A stretch of DNA of 64,000 bases, taken from Anaerolineales bacterium. Its GTDB lineage: Bacteria > Chloroflexota > Anaerolineae > Anaerolineales > UBA11579. Position numbers and translations under genes: made by a program. The stretch is taken from positions 2,859 through 66,858 of the forward strand of contig JANWHN010000076.1 of NCBI GenBank assembly GCA_025450445.1. Reading direction: 5' to 3'. This document shows positions 2,053 to 18,367 of this stretch, piece by piece (position 1 is the first letter of the stretch; every line of letters begins with the position of its first letter). The notes under the pieces were generated by a model. The model had not been told where the DNA came from. It made no database searches and saw only the letters and a program-made list of their open reading frames with translations.

Positions 2053-2883
2053 TCACAGCGAGATTTGGAATGTTGCGACTGCGATCAGAGCTCCTGCAAC
2101 GGCGCTTATGAAATTTACCCAGTCGTTATCGAGCCAAGCCCAACCGCGATGCAATGTTGTTTCTGTTCCGCAGGTATGCAGCGGATGGCGCTCAGTTTCT
2201 TTTTTGCATTGAGGACAGTAATAAATTCCTTGCACGGTCGCGCCTAGCAGCGAGTCGATTGCCGAGCCAAATACACCACCAATGGTGACCGCCAAGATTA
2301 CTTGGCTCGTTTGGCCGCTGAGAAACCAAGCGGCGAGACCAGCGATCAGCATCGCGCCGAGCAAGCTGACTGCGCTGCCCAGTAATGAAATTGCACCCGA
2401 TGTGCCGCCCGGCACGCGCTTACCGTTCGAGATCAGGATGGGCGAAGCAGAACTGAGCACGCCCAATTCGGTGGCCCATGTGTCTGCGTTCACGGTCGCC
2501 AACGATCCGGCATAAGCCAGCCAGGCTGTTGGCGCGGGCAGCCAGCCTGCGGTGGCGGCTAGCAATGCAAGCACACCGAGGCCGCCATTGGCTGCAACCT
2601 GCGCCCAGTCTCGGCGACCGCCCTTGGCGAAATCAGCGGCGACGATCTTTTTTCTGGAGACGGAGGAGCGTGAAAGCAGGCTCGAGGAACCGAAGAAAAC
2701 CAATAATGGGATTGCCCAGGCTAAGCCGCCCAATCCATAAATTACGCCGCCCATTACAAAGGCTGCGATAGCGCCGTTGATCGACAAAATTCGGAGCCGC
2801 CAGGCAGCCACAGAGACGAATACCGCTAAGCCAAAACCAACCAGGATTTGGGTCAGGTCGATTTCAGGAGCAATGTCTAGCAT
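2053..2883 (-). CDS. DUF92/TMEM19-like integral membrane protein
   Basis: 276-aa polytopic ORF. N-terminus LSINGAIAAFVMGGVIYGLGG...FFGSSSLLSR resembles the DUF92 family. It has a CPQC...HTC cysteine/histidine cluster in a loop. Confidence 0.7.
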   Translation of the reverse strand: MLDIAPEIDLTQILVGFGLAVFVSVAAWRLRILSINGAIAAFVMGGVIYGLGGLAWAIPLLVFFGSSSLLSRSSVSRKKIVAADFAKGGRRDWAQVAANGGLGVLALLAATAGWLPAPTAWLAYAGSLATVNADTWATELGVLSSASPILISNGKRVPGGTSGAISLLGSAVSLLGAMLIAGLAAWFLSGQTSQVILAVTIGGVFGSAIDSLLGATVQGIYYCPQCKKETERHPLHTCGTETTLHRGWAWLDNDWVNFISAVAGALIAVATFQISL

Positions 2884-4273: not shown

Positions 4274-5022
4274 GTATTTCACCAGAAGTATTAGTCGCAC
4301 TTGCGCTTTTCTTCATCCTCTTGTTTTCGGTATGGGGCAGGAACAACCCGCGCCGCGTGTTTCGATCAATTAAAGCTTTCAAAGAATTGCAACGCAACAT
4401 CGAGCTCTCCGTAGAAGACGGTTCACGTTTGCAGATCGGCCTGGGTTCCGGTGGTCTATTGGGGCCGCAGAGTGCGGCTGCATTTGCTGGTCTGACTCTG
4501 CTGCGCCAAGTGGCGGATATCGCCTCGGATAGCGATCAACCGCCAATCGCGACCACGGGCGATGGCGCGCTGATGCTGCTGGCGCAAGATACGTTGCGCA
4601 GCACCTATCGACGGCTGGGAATTCGCGAGCAATTTAATTCCAAACTCGGCCGGGTTACCGGGCTCACACCCTTCTCACATGCGGCTGGTGCGCTGCCGTT
4701 GATTCTTGATCGTTCGGTTCTCGGAAGCGCGTTGATCGGCAGCTATGGAAACGAAGTGGGCCTGATCGCCGGGGCAAGCCAGCGGGCAAACGGCTTCACC
4801 ACCGGCGGCAGCGACAGACTAAGCACCCAAGCGATCTTGTTCGCAGCTGCGGATGAGCCGCTAATCGGCGAAGAGATCTATGCCACCGGCGCATACACCA
4901 ACGCTGGGGCGGCGCACCAAGCCAGTCTGCGCTCACAAGATTTGTTGCGTTGGATTCTGATCGCGCTCTTGATCATCACTGCCCTAGCCCCGCTATTTGA
5001 AGGCAGTCAAATCGTTCAATGA
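4270..5022 (+). CDS. hypothetical bitopic membrane protein
   Basis: 250-aa ORF with an N-terminal TM (VLVALALFFILLFSVW), a C-terminal TM (WILIALLIITALAPLF) and a Gly/Ala-rich middle. ATGA overlaps on both sides. Confidence 0.65.
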   Translation: MSISPEVLVALALFFILLFSVWGRNNPRRVFRSIKAFKELQRNIELSVEDGSRLQIGLGSGGLLGPQSAAAFAGLTLLRQVADIASDSDQPPIATTGDGALMLLAQDTLRSTYRRLGIREQFNSKLGRVTGLTPFSHAAGALPLILDRSVLGSALIGSYGNEVGLIAGASQRANGFTTGGSDRLSTQAILFAAADEPLIGEEIYATGAYTNAGAAHQASLRSQDLLRWILIALLIITALAPLFEGSQIVQ

Positions 5023-11631: not shown

Positions 11632-12831
11632 TCAGCGCAATAATTTAACTACGCGTTCCAACACAATTCGGGCGACATCTTCTTTGCTCATTAGCGCCAG
11701 CTCTTCTTTGCTGCCTGATCTGTCGATCAGGGTGACGCGGTTTGTATCGACCTCAAAGCCGGCGTCAACGGCGCGGATGTCGTTGGCAACGATCAGGTCG
11801 AGGTTCTTGGATTCCAGTTTATGAGCAGCATTCTTTAGCAAATCGTCGCTTTCGGCGGCGAAGCCAACAATCACTTTGGGGCGAGATGCGTTGGTAACCG
11901 CCTGCAGAATATCGGGATTGGTTTCCAGTTCAAGATCGGGGACTCCGCCGGCGCGTTTGATCTTTTTCTGGCTGGAGTTGGTGACGCGGAAATCGGCCAC
12001 GGCGGCGGCCATCAAGAGCGCGTCTGCGCCTTTGGTGGCTTGCAATGTGGCGTCCAGCATCTCCTCAGCGCTAGTAATTGCAACTAAGTTGACGCCGAAT
12101 GGTGCGGTGAGTGCGGTCGGGGCCGAGACCAGGGTGACACCTGCGCCAAGGTCGATAGCGGCTTGAGCCAGGGCGTAGCCCTGCTTGCCGGAGGAACGGT
12201 TGGCGATCACGCGGACCGGATCGATGGCTTCTTGCGTGCCCCCAGCGGTGACGACGACCTTGCGGCCAGCCAATGGTCCTTTGGCGCCTAGTAGGCAGCG
12301 AATGTGACCGACTAGTTCGCTTGGCTCGGTCATACGGCCCTGGCCGCTGAGTCCGGACGCCAGGTGGCCGCTGACGGGGCCAACGATGTGAGCGCCGCGT
12401 TCGGTGAGGCTGCGCAGGTTTTGCTGGGTGGCAGGATGGTCGTACATGCCACCATCCATAGCTGGCGCGAGCAGAAGAGGAACGGTGCCAGCCAGGGCAG
12501 CGAGGGTGATCAGATTATCGGCCTGACCGTTGGCGAGTTTGGCGAGCGTATTGGCGGTGACGGGAGCGATGACGATGAGATCGGCGTCTTTGCTGAGGCC
12601 AACGTGGAGGACATGGCCCTCGGGTCCCCATAAGTCTTGATCGGTGTAAGCGCGTCGGCCAGTTACGGATTGGAACGTAAGCGGAGCGACGAATTTGGTG
12701 GCCGCGTCACTGAGGACGACATCAACCTTGATGCCAAGTTGGGTGAGCTTGGAGGCGAGATCGACTGCTTTGTAGCAGGCGATCGAGCCGGTGACGCCGA
12801 GAAGGACGCGTTTGGACTCGAAGGGATTCAT
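11632..12831 (-). CDS. coaBC: bifunctional phosphopantothenoylcysteine decarboxylase / phosphopantothenate-cysteine ligase
   Basis: 399 aa. N-terminal flavoprotein motif LLGVTGSIACYKAVDLASKL. The CoaB half has VVVTAGGTQEAIDPVRVIANRSSGKQG. Confidence 0.95.
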   Translation of the reverse strand: MNPFESKRVLLGVTGSIACYKAVDLASKLTQLGIKVDVVLSDAATKFVAPLTFQSVTGRRAYTDQDLWGPEGHVLHVGLSKDADLIVIAPVTANTLAKLANGQADNLITLAALAGTVPLLLAPAMDGGMYDHPATQQNLRSLTERGAHIVGPVSGHLASGLSGQGRMTEPSELVGHIRCLLGAKGPLAGRKVVVTAGGTQEAIDPVRVIANRSSGKQGYALAQAAIDLGAGVTLVSAPTALTAPFGVNLVAITSAEEMLDATLQATKGADALLMAAAVADFRVTNSSQKKIKRAGGVPDLELETNPDILQAVTNASRPKVIVGFAAESDDLLKNAAHKLESKNLDLIVANDIRAVDAGFEVDTNRVTLIDRSGSKEELALMSKEDVARIVLERVVKLLR

Positions 12832-13700
12832 GGTTTCACCGCCACAAATTCGGCGAGGGCAGAGGCGAAGCGCGCTGGAGCGCCAGGATTGAAGCCAAGG
12901 AAGAGATGGGGCTCAATAAGCTCGAGTTCCATCAAGAGGAGCTGACCATCGCGATCGATGCCATCTACACGCTCATACAAAATCCGATCTTCGACCGTAT
13001 CGACGACTTTTTGCGCTTGAGCGATCAGGTAATCCGGCGCCTCGGCGACCAGTTCGGCTCCGCCCCACTCGGATTGGACGCGAAAATCGCCGCGCTTGGG
13101 CTGCTTAAGCATCGAATGACTGTATTGCTTGTTGAAGAAAACCAGCGACCATTCGCCGGTTTGCTGGATCTCGGGCGCGAACTCCTGCACGATGGTGCCG
13201 GTGCGAGAAAGCAAGTCGGAAAAATTAGATTGGTGCGCGGCGGCTTCGGCTACGGAAACTAGCGAAGTTTCGTGAGCCGTGGCTGAGACTATCGGTTTAA
13301 CGACGGCGTGCTGCCAGCCTTGCCGCGAAACAATTTCTGAAAGGTTAGCCTCCGCGCGCTGTGGCAGCCAGACAGATGGGATGACGCTGATTCCGTTTTG
13401 CTGAAGTTCATGTAAATAATTCTTGTCAACATTCCAACGCACAGTTTTCGTCGAGTTCCAAACAGTCGCGCCGGCTTGGTCGAGTTTATCGAGCCATGAA
13501 ATGAACTCTCGTGGCTGGAGGTGATAATCCCACATCGAGCGCAGAATCACTGCATCGTAAGCGCCCCACTCAACGGTCGGGTCATTCCAAAAGGCCGGCG
13601 CCACTGTGATGCCGCGCGATTCGAGTTCGGGAATCGCAAGGCGATCGTCGTCGGTGAGACTTGGGATCTCGTAGCAGGTAACGAATGCGATCCTGGTCAT
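12828..13700 (-). CDS. ATP-grasp-family ligase-like protein of unknown substrate
   Basis: 290 aa. The N-terminal pattern RIAFVTC...DDDRL...WNDPTVEWGAYDAVILRSMWDYH...WNVDKNYL matches a family usually annotated as ATP-grasp/glutathione-synthetase-like. ATGA overlap with coaBC, and a 3-nt gap to coaX. Confidence 0.6.
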   Translation of the reverse strand: MTRIAFVTCYEIPSLTDDDRLAIPELESRGITVAPAFWNDPTVEWGAYDAVILRSMWDYHLQPREFISWLDKLDQAGATVWNSTKTVRWNVDKNYLHELQQNGISVIPSVWLPQRAEANLSEIVSRQGWQHAVVKPIVSATAHETSLVSVAEAAAHQSNFSDLLSRTGTIVQEFAPEIQQTGEWSLVFFNKQYSHSMLKQPKRGDFRVQSEWGGAELVAEAPDYLIAQAQKVVDTVEDRILYERVDGIDRDGQLLLMELELIEPHLFLGFNPGAPARFASALAEFVAVKP

Positions 13701-15311: not shown

Positions 15312-16219
15312 GCGGGCCTCAATGCGCTGACGAGCTTCCACATCATCTCGTTGGCAGGAGTTGGCACGCCCAAGGCTTTGCCGGCTTCGACAACCGCGCC
15401 GCAGATGGCGTCGATCTCGGTTTGGGCTTCGCGGCGCACATCTTGCAGCATCGAAGAGATGTTGGCGGCGGTGCGCTGGGCAACGTCTTCGGCGGCGGCA
15501 ACCGGGTCAGCGAAGTTGAGGATGACGCCCTTCTTGTGGGCAACATCGGCGACTTCGCGGGCGAGAGCGGCGCTGATCTCGCGGGCGGTGGAGCGAGTCA
15601 GTAATTCGCCGTTGGGAATATCGAGCAACGCGGTGAGCGGATTGATGGCTGCGTTGACGACGAGCTTGCTCCATGCGAGGGCATCAACATCTTCGACCAC
15701 TTCGGTGGCGAAGTTTGCCGCTGTAAGCAAATCTACAAGAGCAGAAATGCGGGCGTGATTGCCGAACGTGATCGTGCCATCACCGCCGGCACGGACTTCG
15801 CCGGGGCCAAGGAGTGTGGCGCCGTTGGTGCTGATGCCGAAGGCGACGCGCTCGGCGCCAAGGGCGGCAACCAGCTTCTCGCGATTACCGAGCCCGTTCT
15901 GCAATGTGAGGGCGATGCCATCGACGGCCAGGCTCTCGAATAATTGATGAGCGGCATGTTCGGTCTGCCAGGCCTTGACCAAAACGAGCGCAACTTTTGC
16001 GCCGGCAAATTCTTTGGGATCGCTGCCGGCGCGAACGACATAGTTGCGCTTCTTGCCATCCGGCAAGACCAACGTGACGCCGCGATTGTTGAGCGCAGCC
16101 AAGCCCTCGGCCCAATTGCCTAGGATGCTGACATGCTGACCGGCGGCAGCCAAACGGGCAGCGAACAAGCAACCAAGCGCCCCTGTGCCGACGATGAGGA
16201 CTGAGTCGTTAGGACTCAC
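15308..16219 (-). CDS. panE: 2-dehydropantoate 2-reductase (ketopantoate reductase)
   Basis: 303 aa with an N-terminal Rossmann motif VLIVGTGALGCLFAARLAAAG and ApbA/PanE-like length and context. Confidence 0.85.
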   Translation of the reverse strand: MSPNDSVLIVGTGALGCLFAARLAAAGQHVSILGNWAEGLAALNNRGVTLVLPDGKKRNYVVRAGSDPKEFAGAKVALVLVKAWQTEHAAHQLFESLAVDGIALTLQNGLGNREKLVAALGAERVAFGISTNGATLLGPGEVRAGGDGTITFGNHARISALVDLLTAANFATEVVEDVDALAWSKLVVNAAINPLTALLDIPNGELLTRSTAREISAALAREVADVAHKKGVILNFADPVAAAEDVAQRTAANISSMLQDVRREAQTEIDAICGAVVEAGKALGVPTPANEMMWKLVSALRPA

Positions 16220-17105
16220 CCAATTCCTTGAGCAAGGCTTGCCATTGCTCTTCTTTGATGGTCACGCTGTGTTCGTCAGTTGGGAAGCTGCGGGCCTCGA
16301 CATCATTTTTAAATCCGGTGAAGGCGTCGTTCATCACGCTGTGCATGCTGGCATACTGTTTGACGAACTTGGGCGTGAAGCGATCGAAGAGACCGAGGAG
16401 ATCGTGAGTGACGAGGACCTGACCGTCGCAGCCGATGCCGGCGCCGATGCCGATAGTGGGGATGGATAATTTTTTAGAGACCCATTCAGCGAGACGGGCG
16501 GGAACAGATTCGAGGACGACGCTGAACGCGCCGGCTTCTTCAAGGGAAAAAGCATCGTCGATCAATTTTTTGGCAGCGGAACTGGTGCGGGCTTGCGGGC
16601 GAAACCCGCCAAGAGTGTTGACGCTTTGCGGAGTGAGGCCGAGGTGGCCCATCACCGGGATGCCGGCGGCCACAATCTGGCGCACGGCTTCGGCGCGCTC
16701 GCGGCCGCCTTCGAGCTTGACCGCGTCCATGCCGGCTTCCTGCAAAAAGCGGCCGGCGTTGGCGACGGCTTGTTCAACGGAAACCTGATAGGACATGAAG
16801 GGCATATCGCCGATGAGCAGTGCGTAGTGAGCGCCGCGCGAAACGGCGCGAGAGTGATGAAGCATGTCATCCATGGTGACGGGCAGCGTGTTGGGGTAGC
16901 CGAGCACGACCATGCCGAGAGAATCGCCGACGAGGATGGCGTCAATGCCGGCCCGGTCGACTGCCAGCGCGGTCGGATAATCGTAGGCGGTGAGCATCGT
17001 GATGACCTCACCATCTTTTTTCTTTTGGCGGAATAAACGGGTGGTTACCTTGGCGCGCTCAGTTTCACCGGCCTTGGTTTTGACCTTGGGTGTTTCTGTG
17101 GACAC
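16209..17105 (-). CDS. panB: 3-methyl-2-oxobutanoate hydroxymethyltransferase
   Basis: Contains MLTAYDYPTALAVDRAGIDAILVGDSLGMVVLG. GTG 17105 is preceded by GAGGAGGG. The track's 338-aa version (start 17225) would run through the leader hairpins. Confidence 0.9.
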   Translation of the reverse strand: MSTETPKVKTKAGETERAKVTTRLFRQKKKDGEVITMLTAYDYPTALAVDRAGIDAILVGDSLGMVVLGYPNTLPVTMDDMLHHSRAVSRGAHYALLIGDMPFMSYQVSVEQAVANAGRFLQEAGMDAVKLEGGRERAEAVRQIVAAGIPVMGHLGLTPQSVNTLGGFRPQARTSSAAKKLIDDAFSLEEAGAFSVVLESVPARLAEWVSKKLSIPTIGIGAGIGCDGQVLVTHDLLGLFDRFTPKFVKQYASMHSVMNDAFTGFKNDVEARSFPTDEHSVTIKEEQWQALLKELGES

Positions 17106-17276
17106 AGTACCCTCCTCGATGGGTAGAGTCTTAGATTTACAACCTGCCTTTTGCAGGCAGTAAATCTTTAAAACAAAAAACCGCCTGCATGAACAAGGCG
17201 GTCGGACGTGACCTATTACGGCCACAGTGAACCTCTAGTTTGTCCGCCGTCTCGGCCCTTACGGGTCCAAGCAGCT
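17106..17276 (-). promoter_or_regulatory. structured 5' leader of the panB operon with intrinsic terminator (candidate riboswitch/attenuator, possibly the pan motif)
   Basis: On the minus strand there are three stem elements: GGACCC-GUAA-GGGCC (17254-17268), CGGAC...GUCCG (17242-17246 / 17203-17207), and the enclosed GUGGCC-GUAAUA-GGUCAC (17208-17225). These are followed by CCGCCU-9 nt-AGGCGG + UUUUUUGUUUU (17172-17201). A further CUGCCU-5 nt-AGGCAG hairpin (17144-17160) precedes the RBS. Confidence 0.4.
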
Positions 17277-17282
17277 AAAAGG

Positions 17283-17311
17283 ATTATTACCTAAGAGGGG
17301 AATTTGGGCAA
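17283..17311 (-). promoter_or_regulatory. candidate promoter of pan/coa operon (TTGCCC-17 nt-AATAAT)
   Basis: Read on the minus strand: TTGCCC (17311-17306), a 17-nt spacer, then AATAAT (17288-17283). Confidence 0.3.
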
Positions 17312-17406
17312 GGGGTCGGGTGTTAGGGTGTTGTTAACAATCTTCTGTCGGCGGGCAGGAAACAGGTAGCGAATTTTTAGGCTAATTCCGAAGACAAAGT
17401 ATGGGT

Positions 17407-17447
17407 GGATGATCCTTCGGCTCGCCGAGCTCGCCTCAGGAAAGCAC
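17407..17447 (-). repeat. short hairpin-type intergenic repeat (copy 1)
   Basis: Minus strand reads gtgctttcCTGAGgcgagctcggcgagccgaAGGATCatcc. It aligns with the copies at 18657, 18708 and 55846. Confidence 0.55.
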
Positions 17448-17450
17448 GCT

Positions 17451-18182
17451 TTATTTCTCGTAGCCCATTTTGCTTAGATAAGGCTCGAAGGCTTTGTTGG
17501 CGGCTTCGAGCTGGGCGGAGGTGAGAGCGGTGCGGAAGCGCTCCGCTTCGCCGTGTTGGAAATGCTGGCCTTTGCCGCCCTGGTTACCTTGATCGGAGCG
17601 ATAGAACTCGATGGCTTCGCGGACGTCCGAATCGCTGGGATCGGCGCCGAGGAAAAGCGCCAGGCGCTCAGCTTCAGCATCGAACTGGCTAACCAGGTTT
17701 TCATAACGCATAGCGTGGACGCCTTTTACCGCCATCCATTCTGTCCAGATCTGCAAATAAGACAGCATAAATTCTATCGCCGTATCCATGGTCTCAAGGA
17801 GGGTGAAGGCGTTGCGACGACCGGCGCCGCGGGAGCGCTGACCGTATTCGTAGGCAGAGAGCATGGCGGCGCGCGGGTCACGATAGACGTAGGTCACTTT
17901 CATTTGGCCCTCGCCCATCAGGCGCAGCGCGATTGGCGTAGGACCGGAATGGGTCTTGATGGCGAAGGTGTTGCCGAGACGGGAAGGAATGAGCACGGGC
18001 ACAAGGCGCTTGGCGCTGAGGGCGCGGATATTGCAATTGACCGCAGTGAGAATGGGAAATAAAAGGAAGAACTGACGGATGAGGCGCGCGTCCTGGCCGC
18101 CATTCGCCACAACCAGATCATGGACGAGGTTGTAGTGCCAGCCAGAGCCGGCGCGGGGCATGCCAGCGGCGAGAATGATCAT
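17451..18182 (-). CDS. sulfotransferase-family protein
   Basis: PAPS 5'-phosphosulfate-binding-like MPRAGSGWHYNLV and 3'-phosphate-binding-like YVYRDPRAAMLSAYEY. ATG 18182 (MIILAAG) is preferred over 18254. The C-terminus ends in GYEK. Confidence 0.75.
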   Translation of the reverse strand: MIILAAGMPRAGSGWHYNLVHDLVVANGGQDARLIRQFFLLFPILTAVNCNIRALSAKRLVPVLIPSRLGNTFAIKTHSGPTPIALRLMGEGQMKVTYVYRDPRAAMLSAYEYGQRSRGAGRRNAFTLLETMDTAIEFMLSYLQIWTEWMAVKGVHAMRYENLVSQFDAEAERLALFLGADPSDSDVREAIEFYRSDQGNQGGKGQHFQHGEAERFRTALTSAQLEAANKAFEPYLSKMGYEK

Positions 18183-18367
18183 GTGAGTTCTTGCGACCAA
18201 AAGAAGATCGCGTTGGAGTGTCCTAGTCGGCTGCGCCGACTCACGGAACTCCATGTGGGCCTTCCCAAATTGGTCGATTCGAGATACTTAGGACACATCG
18301 GCATAATGTGCAATATAATTTTTCGGCGGACGCGGTCATGTTACCATAGCAAAAGGAGTGCACAAAA

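Follow-up and report, generated by a model that had tools for sequence, protein, structure and literature searches.

A tandem pan-motif RNA with an SD-embedded second hairpin in the panB leader of an Anaerolineales bacterium

Introduction

First described in 2010 and an orphan ever since, the pan motif is the only widespread RNA element linked to vitamin B5/CoA synthesis. It is known from Chloroflexi, Firmicutes and delta-proteobacteria, where it lies upstream of panB, panC and panD operons, usually as two tandem hairpins (PMC2864571). The annotated alignment published with the motif shows that the panB leaders of Bacillus and Geobacillus carry the pan hairpins, then a terminator and then an anti-SD hairpin (PMC2864571). 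In-line probing, carried out with three ligands on one single-hairpin Geobacter construct, gave no response to 1 mM pantothenate, CoA or beta-alanine, and the discoverers proposed a dimeric protein (PMC2864571). Reviews as late as 2022 describe CoA as a conspicuous gap among riboswitch ligands, and our literature search turned up no later work on the motif or on how panB leaders are regulated.

Here we describe the panB leader found in a 64-kb stretch of DNA from an Anaerolineales bacterium, the whole of which is called the window below. This leader is a tandem pan-motif RNA and represents a new architectural variant of the known orphan motif. It stands out by a hairpin at the 5′ terminus, a second one in which the SD is embedded, a long spacer that is specific to the lineage and includes a terminator, and sub-threshold Rfam scores. 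The two-hairpin arrangement is typical of the Anaerolineae.

Results

The leader precedes a minus-strand operon with the gene order panB-panE-panC-coaX-(ATP-grasp)-coaBC, which ends at 11632. Its first gene is panB (16209..17105, with a GUG start codon at 17105..17103), and panB, panE, panC, coaX and coaBC all match NCBIfam models above the curated cut-offs. The operon is a pantothenate/CoA operon without panD. Between coaX and coaBC, with overlapping stop and start codons, lies an ATP-grasp-like ORF of 290 aa (12828..13700, minus strand), whose top NCBIfam match is the D-cycloserine synthetase DcsG (E 8e-47, 160 bits versus a cut-off of 360) and for which no Pfam match was found. The co-directional gene upstream of the leader encodes a sulfotransferase-domain protein (18254..17451). 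A consensus scan of positions 16900..17700 found a single sigma-70-like site, on the minus strand at 17283..17311, with TTGCCC as the -35 box (17311..17306), a 17-nt spacer and AATAAT as the -10 box (17288..17283). This is the candidate promoter that an initial annotation of the locus, made by reading the sequence, had placed about 170 nt ahead of the panB GUG; the leader from the promoter to the start codon at 17105 measures about 171 nt, and transcription is predicted to start at about A17276/G17275. The relative L102 shares TTGCC in its -35 box with the window. All the elements listed in that annotation were found on the minus strand where it had put them, and the 181-nt leader as a whole folds with a z-score of -5.7.

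The 5′ end of the leader is formed by a 30-nt pan-type hairpin, pan-1 (17246..17275, minus strand), which reads G CUG CUUGG [A17266] CCC GUAA GGG CCGAG [A17250] CGG C, the two bulged A's being bracketed. It folds with -17.5 kcal/mol (z -3.8), while the opposite strand reaches -9.1 kcal/mol (z -1.2). The GNRA-capped hairpin that had been noticed by eye, GGACCC-GUAA-GGGCC, is the top of this structure (17275..17246). In the window, the first paired base of pan-1 lies 7-8 nt past the -10 box, and a -10-like hexamer is found at the same distance in 28 of the 33 genome leaders and 34 of the 39 metagenome leaders that have such a box. This conserved spacing indicates that pan-1 is essentially the 5′ end of the mRNA, and it also suggests that the terminator described below lies downstream of the promoter.

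At the other end of the leader, 115 nt from pan-1 in the window, we found a second pan-type hairpin, pan-R (17106..17131, minus strand; AG ACUCU [A17124] CC CAUCGA GG AGGGU [A17108] CU). Both hairpins share one layout, namely 2-3 bp, a bulged A, 5 bp, a bulged A, 2-3 bp and a loop. The SD sequence GGAGG (17115..17111) lies in the 3′ arm of pan-R with all five nucleotides paired, and 0 nt separate the end of the hairpin from the GUG start codon. The initial annotation had closed the leader with a hairpin next to the ribosome-binding site; that hairpin exists (17166..17134), but the ribosome-binding site lies inside a further hairpin (17131..17106). This hairpin, pan-R, had been missed and is the most informative feature for the mechanism. 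In all homologous loci that carry it, pan-R ends 0-4 nt ahead of the panB start. The masking of the SD by pan-R itself is clear. The fold is weak, with -5.6 kcal/mol in the window and a median of -7.0 kcal/mol in relatives, and the isolated 31-nt pan-R segment of the window has a competing fold of -8.0 kcal/mol in which the SD is left in a loop.

The pan-1 and pan-R pair was found at 36 of 41 Anaerolineae-type panB loci from genomes and at 36 of 80 metagenome loci. A bare descriptor of the hairpin (9 bp and two bulged A's) gave 10 matches in the window versus 10.8 in shuffled sequences and is not significant alone, which is why we relied on covariance models and on a second, independent set of loci. 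Models R1 (pan-1) and R2 (pan-R) were built from the genome loci and checked on the 80 independently fetched metagenome loci; since the training hairpins had been chosen by a pairing descriptor with about 11 chance matches per 128 kb, it is the covariance-model searches on the second set that are independent. R1 gave 47 matches on these 80 loci and R2 gave 43 (E <0.03), every one of them on the strand of panB. The R1 matches lie, with few exceptions, 50-180 nt ahead of panB, and those of R2 end at its start. Across the 64 kb of the window, R1 scored 28.8 bits on pan-1, its sole good match, and pan-R was the one site matched by R2. A third model, R3, made from metagenome pan-R hairpins only, was run across the whole window on both strands and returned a single match (17132..17106, 24.7 bits, E 1.5e-4). 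Neither R2 nor R3 detected a comparable SD hairpin at other genes, be it in the window or in the loci. R1 does not detect pan-R, and the kinship of the two hairpins rests on their shared geometry and on the Rfam alignment of the relative L034 presented below.

When the upstream regions of related panB genes were aligned, both stems were found to covary. These figures are to be read with the caveat that the pairing rule selected the training hairpins and that covariance-model alignments are biased towards the model: in pan-1, two-sided changes affect 10 of 10 pairs in the genome loci (covariation score 0.61 versus 0.22 in shuffles) and 9 of 10 pairs in the independent set (0.50 versus 0.20), and in pan-R they affect 7 of 9 pairs in the genome loci (0.35 versus 0.18) and 7-8 of 9 in the independent sets (0.40-0.41 versus 0.20-0.21). 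In every alignment the observed score was reached by 0 of 500 shuffles. The pan-R stem thus covaries despite the SD constraint, and the AG/CU base of pan-R in the window is itself a compensated change from G-C to A-U. The bulged A's are invariant in the 37 genome and 47 independent pan-1 sequences, and present in all but one of the 33 and 45 pan-R sequences, respectively. They lie one per strand, 5 bp apart, and both are flanked as K-A-Y, which gives each hairpin a pseudo-two-fold symmetry; the loops vary in length and sequence. At one pan-1 pair, G-U occurs in 11/37 genome sequences and 19/47 of the independent set, and such frequent G-U pairs, together with the strand-asymmetric folding, point to an RNA rather than a DNA operator. 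The closest PanB loci, drawn from genomes and metagenomes and almost all from Anaerolineae/Chloroflexota MAGs, reach at most about 76% identity, so that the helices specific to the window stand outside this covariation check. The view of the leader as a cis-regulatory RNA of the pantothenate/CoA operon is borne out by these conserved, covarying hairpins. Of the multi-hairpin aptamer domain that had been proposed, the first hairpin alone is conserved; relatives have neither the CGGAC/GUCCG domain nor the last hairpin.

We then have to ask how these hairpins relate to the published motif. At the gathering threshold, Rfam returned nothing in the window or in 20 relatives. In permissive mode, the pan family (RF01749) was the top match, with 25.6 bits and E 0.03 on 501 nt, compared to a gathering score of 36.2; positions 17274..17247 were aligned to the second hairpin of the model, and both bulged A's matched in register. 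Of the two hairpins that the model expects, at a distance of about 31 nt, only one was aligned in the window. Relatives scored 27.0-31.9 bits, none reaching 36.2, and in L034 both pan-1 and the SD-embedded pan-R were aligned to the two hairpins of the model (29.7 bits, E 0.0011, 161 nt). The suggestion of the initial annotation that this might be the pan motif therefore holds in substance, pan being the best covariance-model match and the bulged-A geometry occurring twice, but the match stays below the gathering score (25.6 versus 36.2 bits). The window also has the tandem hairpins, the orientation on the panB strand, the covariation and the Chloroflexota range of the motif. The permissive mode also produced microRNA-family matches in the relative L015, which we rejected as spurious and caused by tandem-repeat hairpins. 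This locus carries tandem GGTGGATT/GGTAGA-type repeats that form long hairpins at 2127..2250 and 4437..4520 and are unrelated to the panB leader.

The published leaders (RF01749; PMC2864571) and those described here have several points in common: both carry hairpins with two bulged A's, set 5 bp apart on opposite strands, in two copies ahead of panB and on its strand, and Chloroflexi are among the three known phyla. The pan-1 hairpin of the window resembles the published second hairpin (CCGCUUGG-A-UCC...GGA-CCGAG-A-CGG), and in Bacillus, too, a terminator and SD masking follow the pan hairpins. There are also differences. The window and its relatives score 25-32 bits, under the gathering score of 36.2; the order of the hairpin types is swapped with respect to the Firmicutes seeds; pan-1 is fixed at the transcription start in the Anaerolineae; and the spacer measures 23-119 nt (115 nt in the window) versus about 30-70 nt in the pan seeds. 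Whereas Bacillus leaders use a separate, bulge-less anti-SD hairpin, in the Anaerolineae the downstream pan hairpin itself holds the SD and abuts the start codon. The panB gene of one Anaerolineae MAG (L005) is preceded by a leader of the Dehalococcoides/Firmicutes type, with two pan hairpins in the published order, a terminator, an ordinary ribosome-binding site and no pan-R, showing that both architectures coexist within the Anaerolineae. In the B. subtilis panB leader (PMC2864571, Additional file 4), we noticed by eye that pan hairpin 2 is followed by a conserved tail, AGAGGGAU, with complementarity to the 5′ arm AUCCUUCU of the downstream terminator, and that the AGAGG of this tail also matches the anti-SD CCUCU. 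In Firmicutes the tail may thus act as an antiterminator/anti-anti-SD element.

The region between pan-1 and pan-R has neither a common sequence nor a common fold, and its length ranges from 23 to 119 nt with a median of 52. In the window it begins with a variable domain (17203..17246, minus strand; -15.9 kcal/mol, z -2.4), a lineage-specific spacer made of the CGGAC/GUCCG helix around GUGGCC-GUAAUA-GGUCAC that had been drawn by eye and is indeed present (17246..17203). No counterpart in sequence or structure was found among 70 related linkers. In the sub-lineage of the window (the window, L001 and L102), pan-1, the closing helix of the variable domain and the terminator follow one another directly (linkers of 0 nt), as in a three-helix junction, and the sequences within the variable domain are unrelated.

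The variable domain is followed by an intrinsic terminator (17170..17203, minus strand), a GACCGCCUUG-UUCAU-GCAGGCGGUU stem-loop at 17203..17179 with the U6GU4 tract at 17180..17170. The hairpin has -12.4 to -13.6 kcal/mol and abuts the U tract, confirming the canonical terminator that had been recognised inside the leader (stem up to -13.6 kcal/mol and U6GU4). Its stem pairs have an ensemble probability of 0.98-1.0, and it is predicted to form by default. A simple terminator scanner missed it, probably owing to the interrupted stem and the long loop, and folding confirmed it. Terminator-like hairpins with a U tract occur in the linker of 8 of 71 two-hairpin leaders, the most canonical being that of the window. 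A 17-codon AUG ORF starting from the terminator loop has no SD and was dismissed by inspection as a leader peptide. Between the U tract and pan-R lies a further hairpin, hp4 (17134..17166, minus strand; GAUUUAC-UGCCUGC-AAAAG-GCAGG-UUGUAAAUC; -18.0 kcal/mol, z -5.5), which occurs once in the window when searched for as a repeated element and is absent from all the relatives compared. In the minimum free energy structure of the full leader, the hp4 stem is extended and GUUUU of the U tract is paired with AAGAC at the base of the pan-R 5′ arm.

The initial annotation had also proposed that a GGCGG in the 5′ domain pairs with CCGCC of the terminator arm as an antiterminator. These segments (17248..17244 and 17201..17197) are complementary, but their pairing probability is about 0 in the equilibrium model, in which the basal pairs of pan-1 and the pairs of the terminator have a probability of about 1 and the terminator (OFF) state is better by about 8 kcal/mol. 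A duplex of the 3′ arm of pan-1 with the 5′ arm of the terminator has z-scores of -1.5 in the window, -2.4 in L001 and -2.3 in L102, and none was found in five others. The GGCGG/CCGCC antiterminator, or a 3-bp extension of the CGGAC/GUCCG helix, finds no support in the thermodynamic model and has weak comparative support; folding found no mutually exclusive structure linking pan-1 to the terminator.

A different element was observed in 29 of 71 related leaders (including L002-L018, L040, L081-L101, L106 and L160) and is absent from the window. It is a G+C-rich hairpin that lies 5-15 nt ahead of pan-R and has, within its loop or close to it, an RGGGR tract. The SD arm (AGGGU) is mimicked by this tract, which is also complementary to the 5′ arm of pan-R (CCCCU/CUCCU/ACUCU). 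Judging from this complementarity, the hairpin may be an anti-sequestor that frees the SD.

Discussion

Any account of this leader has to start from its two hairpins, which are conserved, covary and lie at set distances from the -10 box (pan-1) and the start codon (pan-R), and from its terminator. The best explanation, to which we assign a rough probability of 0.6, is a tandem pan-motif RNA in which an effector stabilises the occlusion of the ribosome-binding site. That such an effector exists, what kind of molecule it is, which way it regulates and what pan-1 contributes are inferred. Transcription would start 1-2 nt ahead of pan-1, and an effector signalling pantothenate/CoA sufficiency would recognise the bulged-A helices, more likely as a homodimeric RNA-binding protein and less likely as a metabolite. 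By locking the otherwise marginal pan-R (-5.6 kcal/mol), it would block 30S binding and repress panB translation, a repression that would probably extend to the translationally coupled operon. The terminator, inserted between the hairpins in the lineage of the window, would add a layer of transcriptional attenuation. Invariant bulges that weaken the helix, set in stems that covary, argue for specific recognition, and the weak fold of pan-R is consistent with the need for an effector. Against this explanation stands the fact that pan-1 is very stable alone and that no alternative structure ties it to the terminator. The Rfam scores below the gathering score in the window and in the relatives examined, the chance matches of the descriptor that picked the training hairpins, the competing fold of the isolated pan-R segment and the predicted default formation of the terminator count against it as well. 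That the effector is a dimeric protein seems to us slightly short of an even bet. It is favoured over a metabolite by the symmetry within each hairpin, the tiny conserved core and the variable loops, as well as by the negative in-line probing and the lack of any later validation, with CoA still listed as a missing ligand.

The small size of the element also weighs on the reading of the leader as a metabolite riboswitch, in which the two bulged-A hairpins would be aptamers for a small molecule of the pantothenate/CoA pathway and the ligand would stabilise pan-R and/or the terminator. A helix of 26-30 nt, in which the conserved nucleotides are almost limited to the two A's and their neighbours and the loops vary in length and sequence, speaks against an aptamer; the two-fold pseudo-symmetry of each hairpin better fits a dimeric protein, and no conserved alternative-pairing platform was found. 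In favour of such a riboswitch are the strict association with pantothenate/CoA genes and the invariance of the unpaired A's. The published probing was limited to three ligands and one single-hairpin Geobacter construct, a CoA riboswitch is still regarded as missing, and the tandem hairpins of the guanidine-II (mini-ykkC) riboswitch were at first doubted too, a precedent that keeps the riboswitch reading alive. We consider it somewhat unlikely, and its more specific form, a riboswitch for 4′-phosphopantetheine, dephospho-CoA, acyl-CoA or pantoate whose second aptamer hairpin is the SD-sequestering helix in the Anaerolineae, unlikely. If true, this more specific form would supply the long-missing riboswitch class of the CoA pathway.

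The leader could also act without any effector, with pan-1 as a 5′ stabiliser, pan-R as a constitutive SD mask or a thermosensor that sets the expression level, and the terminator as a constitutive leaky attenuator. The stability of pan-1 and its position at +1/+2 of the transcript, a pan-R weak enough for ribosomes to open, and a terminator predicted to form by default are what such a leader would show. However, both A's are invariant over more than 150 hairpins even though the bulges weaken the helices, the paired positions covary, the bulged-A geometry recurs in three phyla and only ahead of pantothenate genes, and neither R2 nor R3 found a comparable SD hairpin at other genes; all this makes the effector-independent reading quite improbable. 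We regard as very improbable that the terminator belongs to the upstream sulfotransferase gene, with a panB start downstream of it and pan-1 outside the panB mRNA: although that gene is co-directional (18254..17451) and the interval from it to panB yielded no further terminator-like site, the sole promoter-like site is located ahead of pan-1, the segment 17170..17132 has no room for a credible promoter, and relatives, which for the most part have no leader terminator, keep the spacing between the -10 box and pan-1. The terminator could do double duty for the sulfotransferase gene too. Finally, the position of pan-1 directly past the -10 box is a classical one for a repressor, and the inverted repeats might be DNA sites for a transcription factor, over the transcription start and the start codon. 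This reading is close to refuted, given that the stems covary rather than keep their sequence, that G-U pairs are common, that the conserved A's are staggered and not mirror-symmetric in duplex DNA, that the opposite strand folds poorly and that the model matches are all on the coding strand.

With the Anaerolineae variant, the pan motif gains more than 80 divergent examples, and it becomes apparent that an entire clade of members, at the level of a class, escapes the Rfam pan model. With the bulged-A hairpin being the helix that masks the SD, effector binding should give translational repression directly, and such a hairpin eases the design of compact reporters and of RNA baits for an effector search.

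Several known systems share parts of this organization. The guanidine-II (mini-ykkC) riboswitch consists of two small, simple hairpins with a variable linker, the downstream one being close to the SD, as in the panB leader; however, it is an ON switch whose conserved nucleotides lie in kissing ACGR loops, while the panB leader has variable loops and its conserved nucleotides bulge out of the stems. In the PyrR and TRAP attenuators, a protein bound to the leader RNA decides whether the terminator forms, and they are comparable to leaders that combine pan hairpins with a terminator, except that no conserved antiterminator was found in the panB leaders. The E. coli thrS operator has two hairpins adjoining the SD that are bound by a homodimeric enzyme, a similar disposition near the SD but with a tRNA mimicry that the panB leader does not have. 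In the MS2/R17 coat-protein operator, a short bulged-A hairpin contains the ribosome-binding region or start codon, and a protein dimer bound to it represses translation. That operator is from a phage, has one bulged A together with loop recognition and bears no sequence relationship to the panB leader. By analogy, however, as a bulged-A hairpin that includes the ribosome-binding region, it is the closest analogue for the way in which pan-R probably acts.
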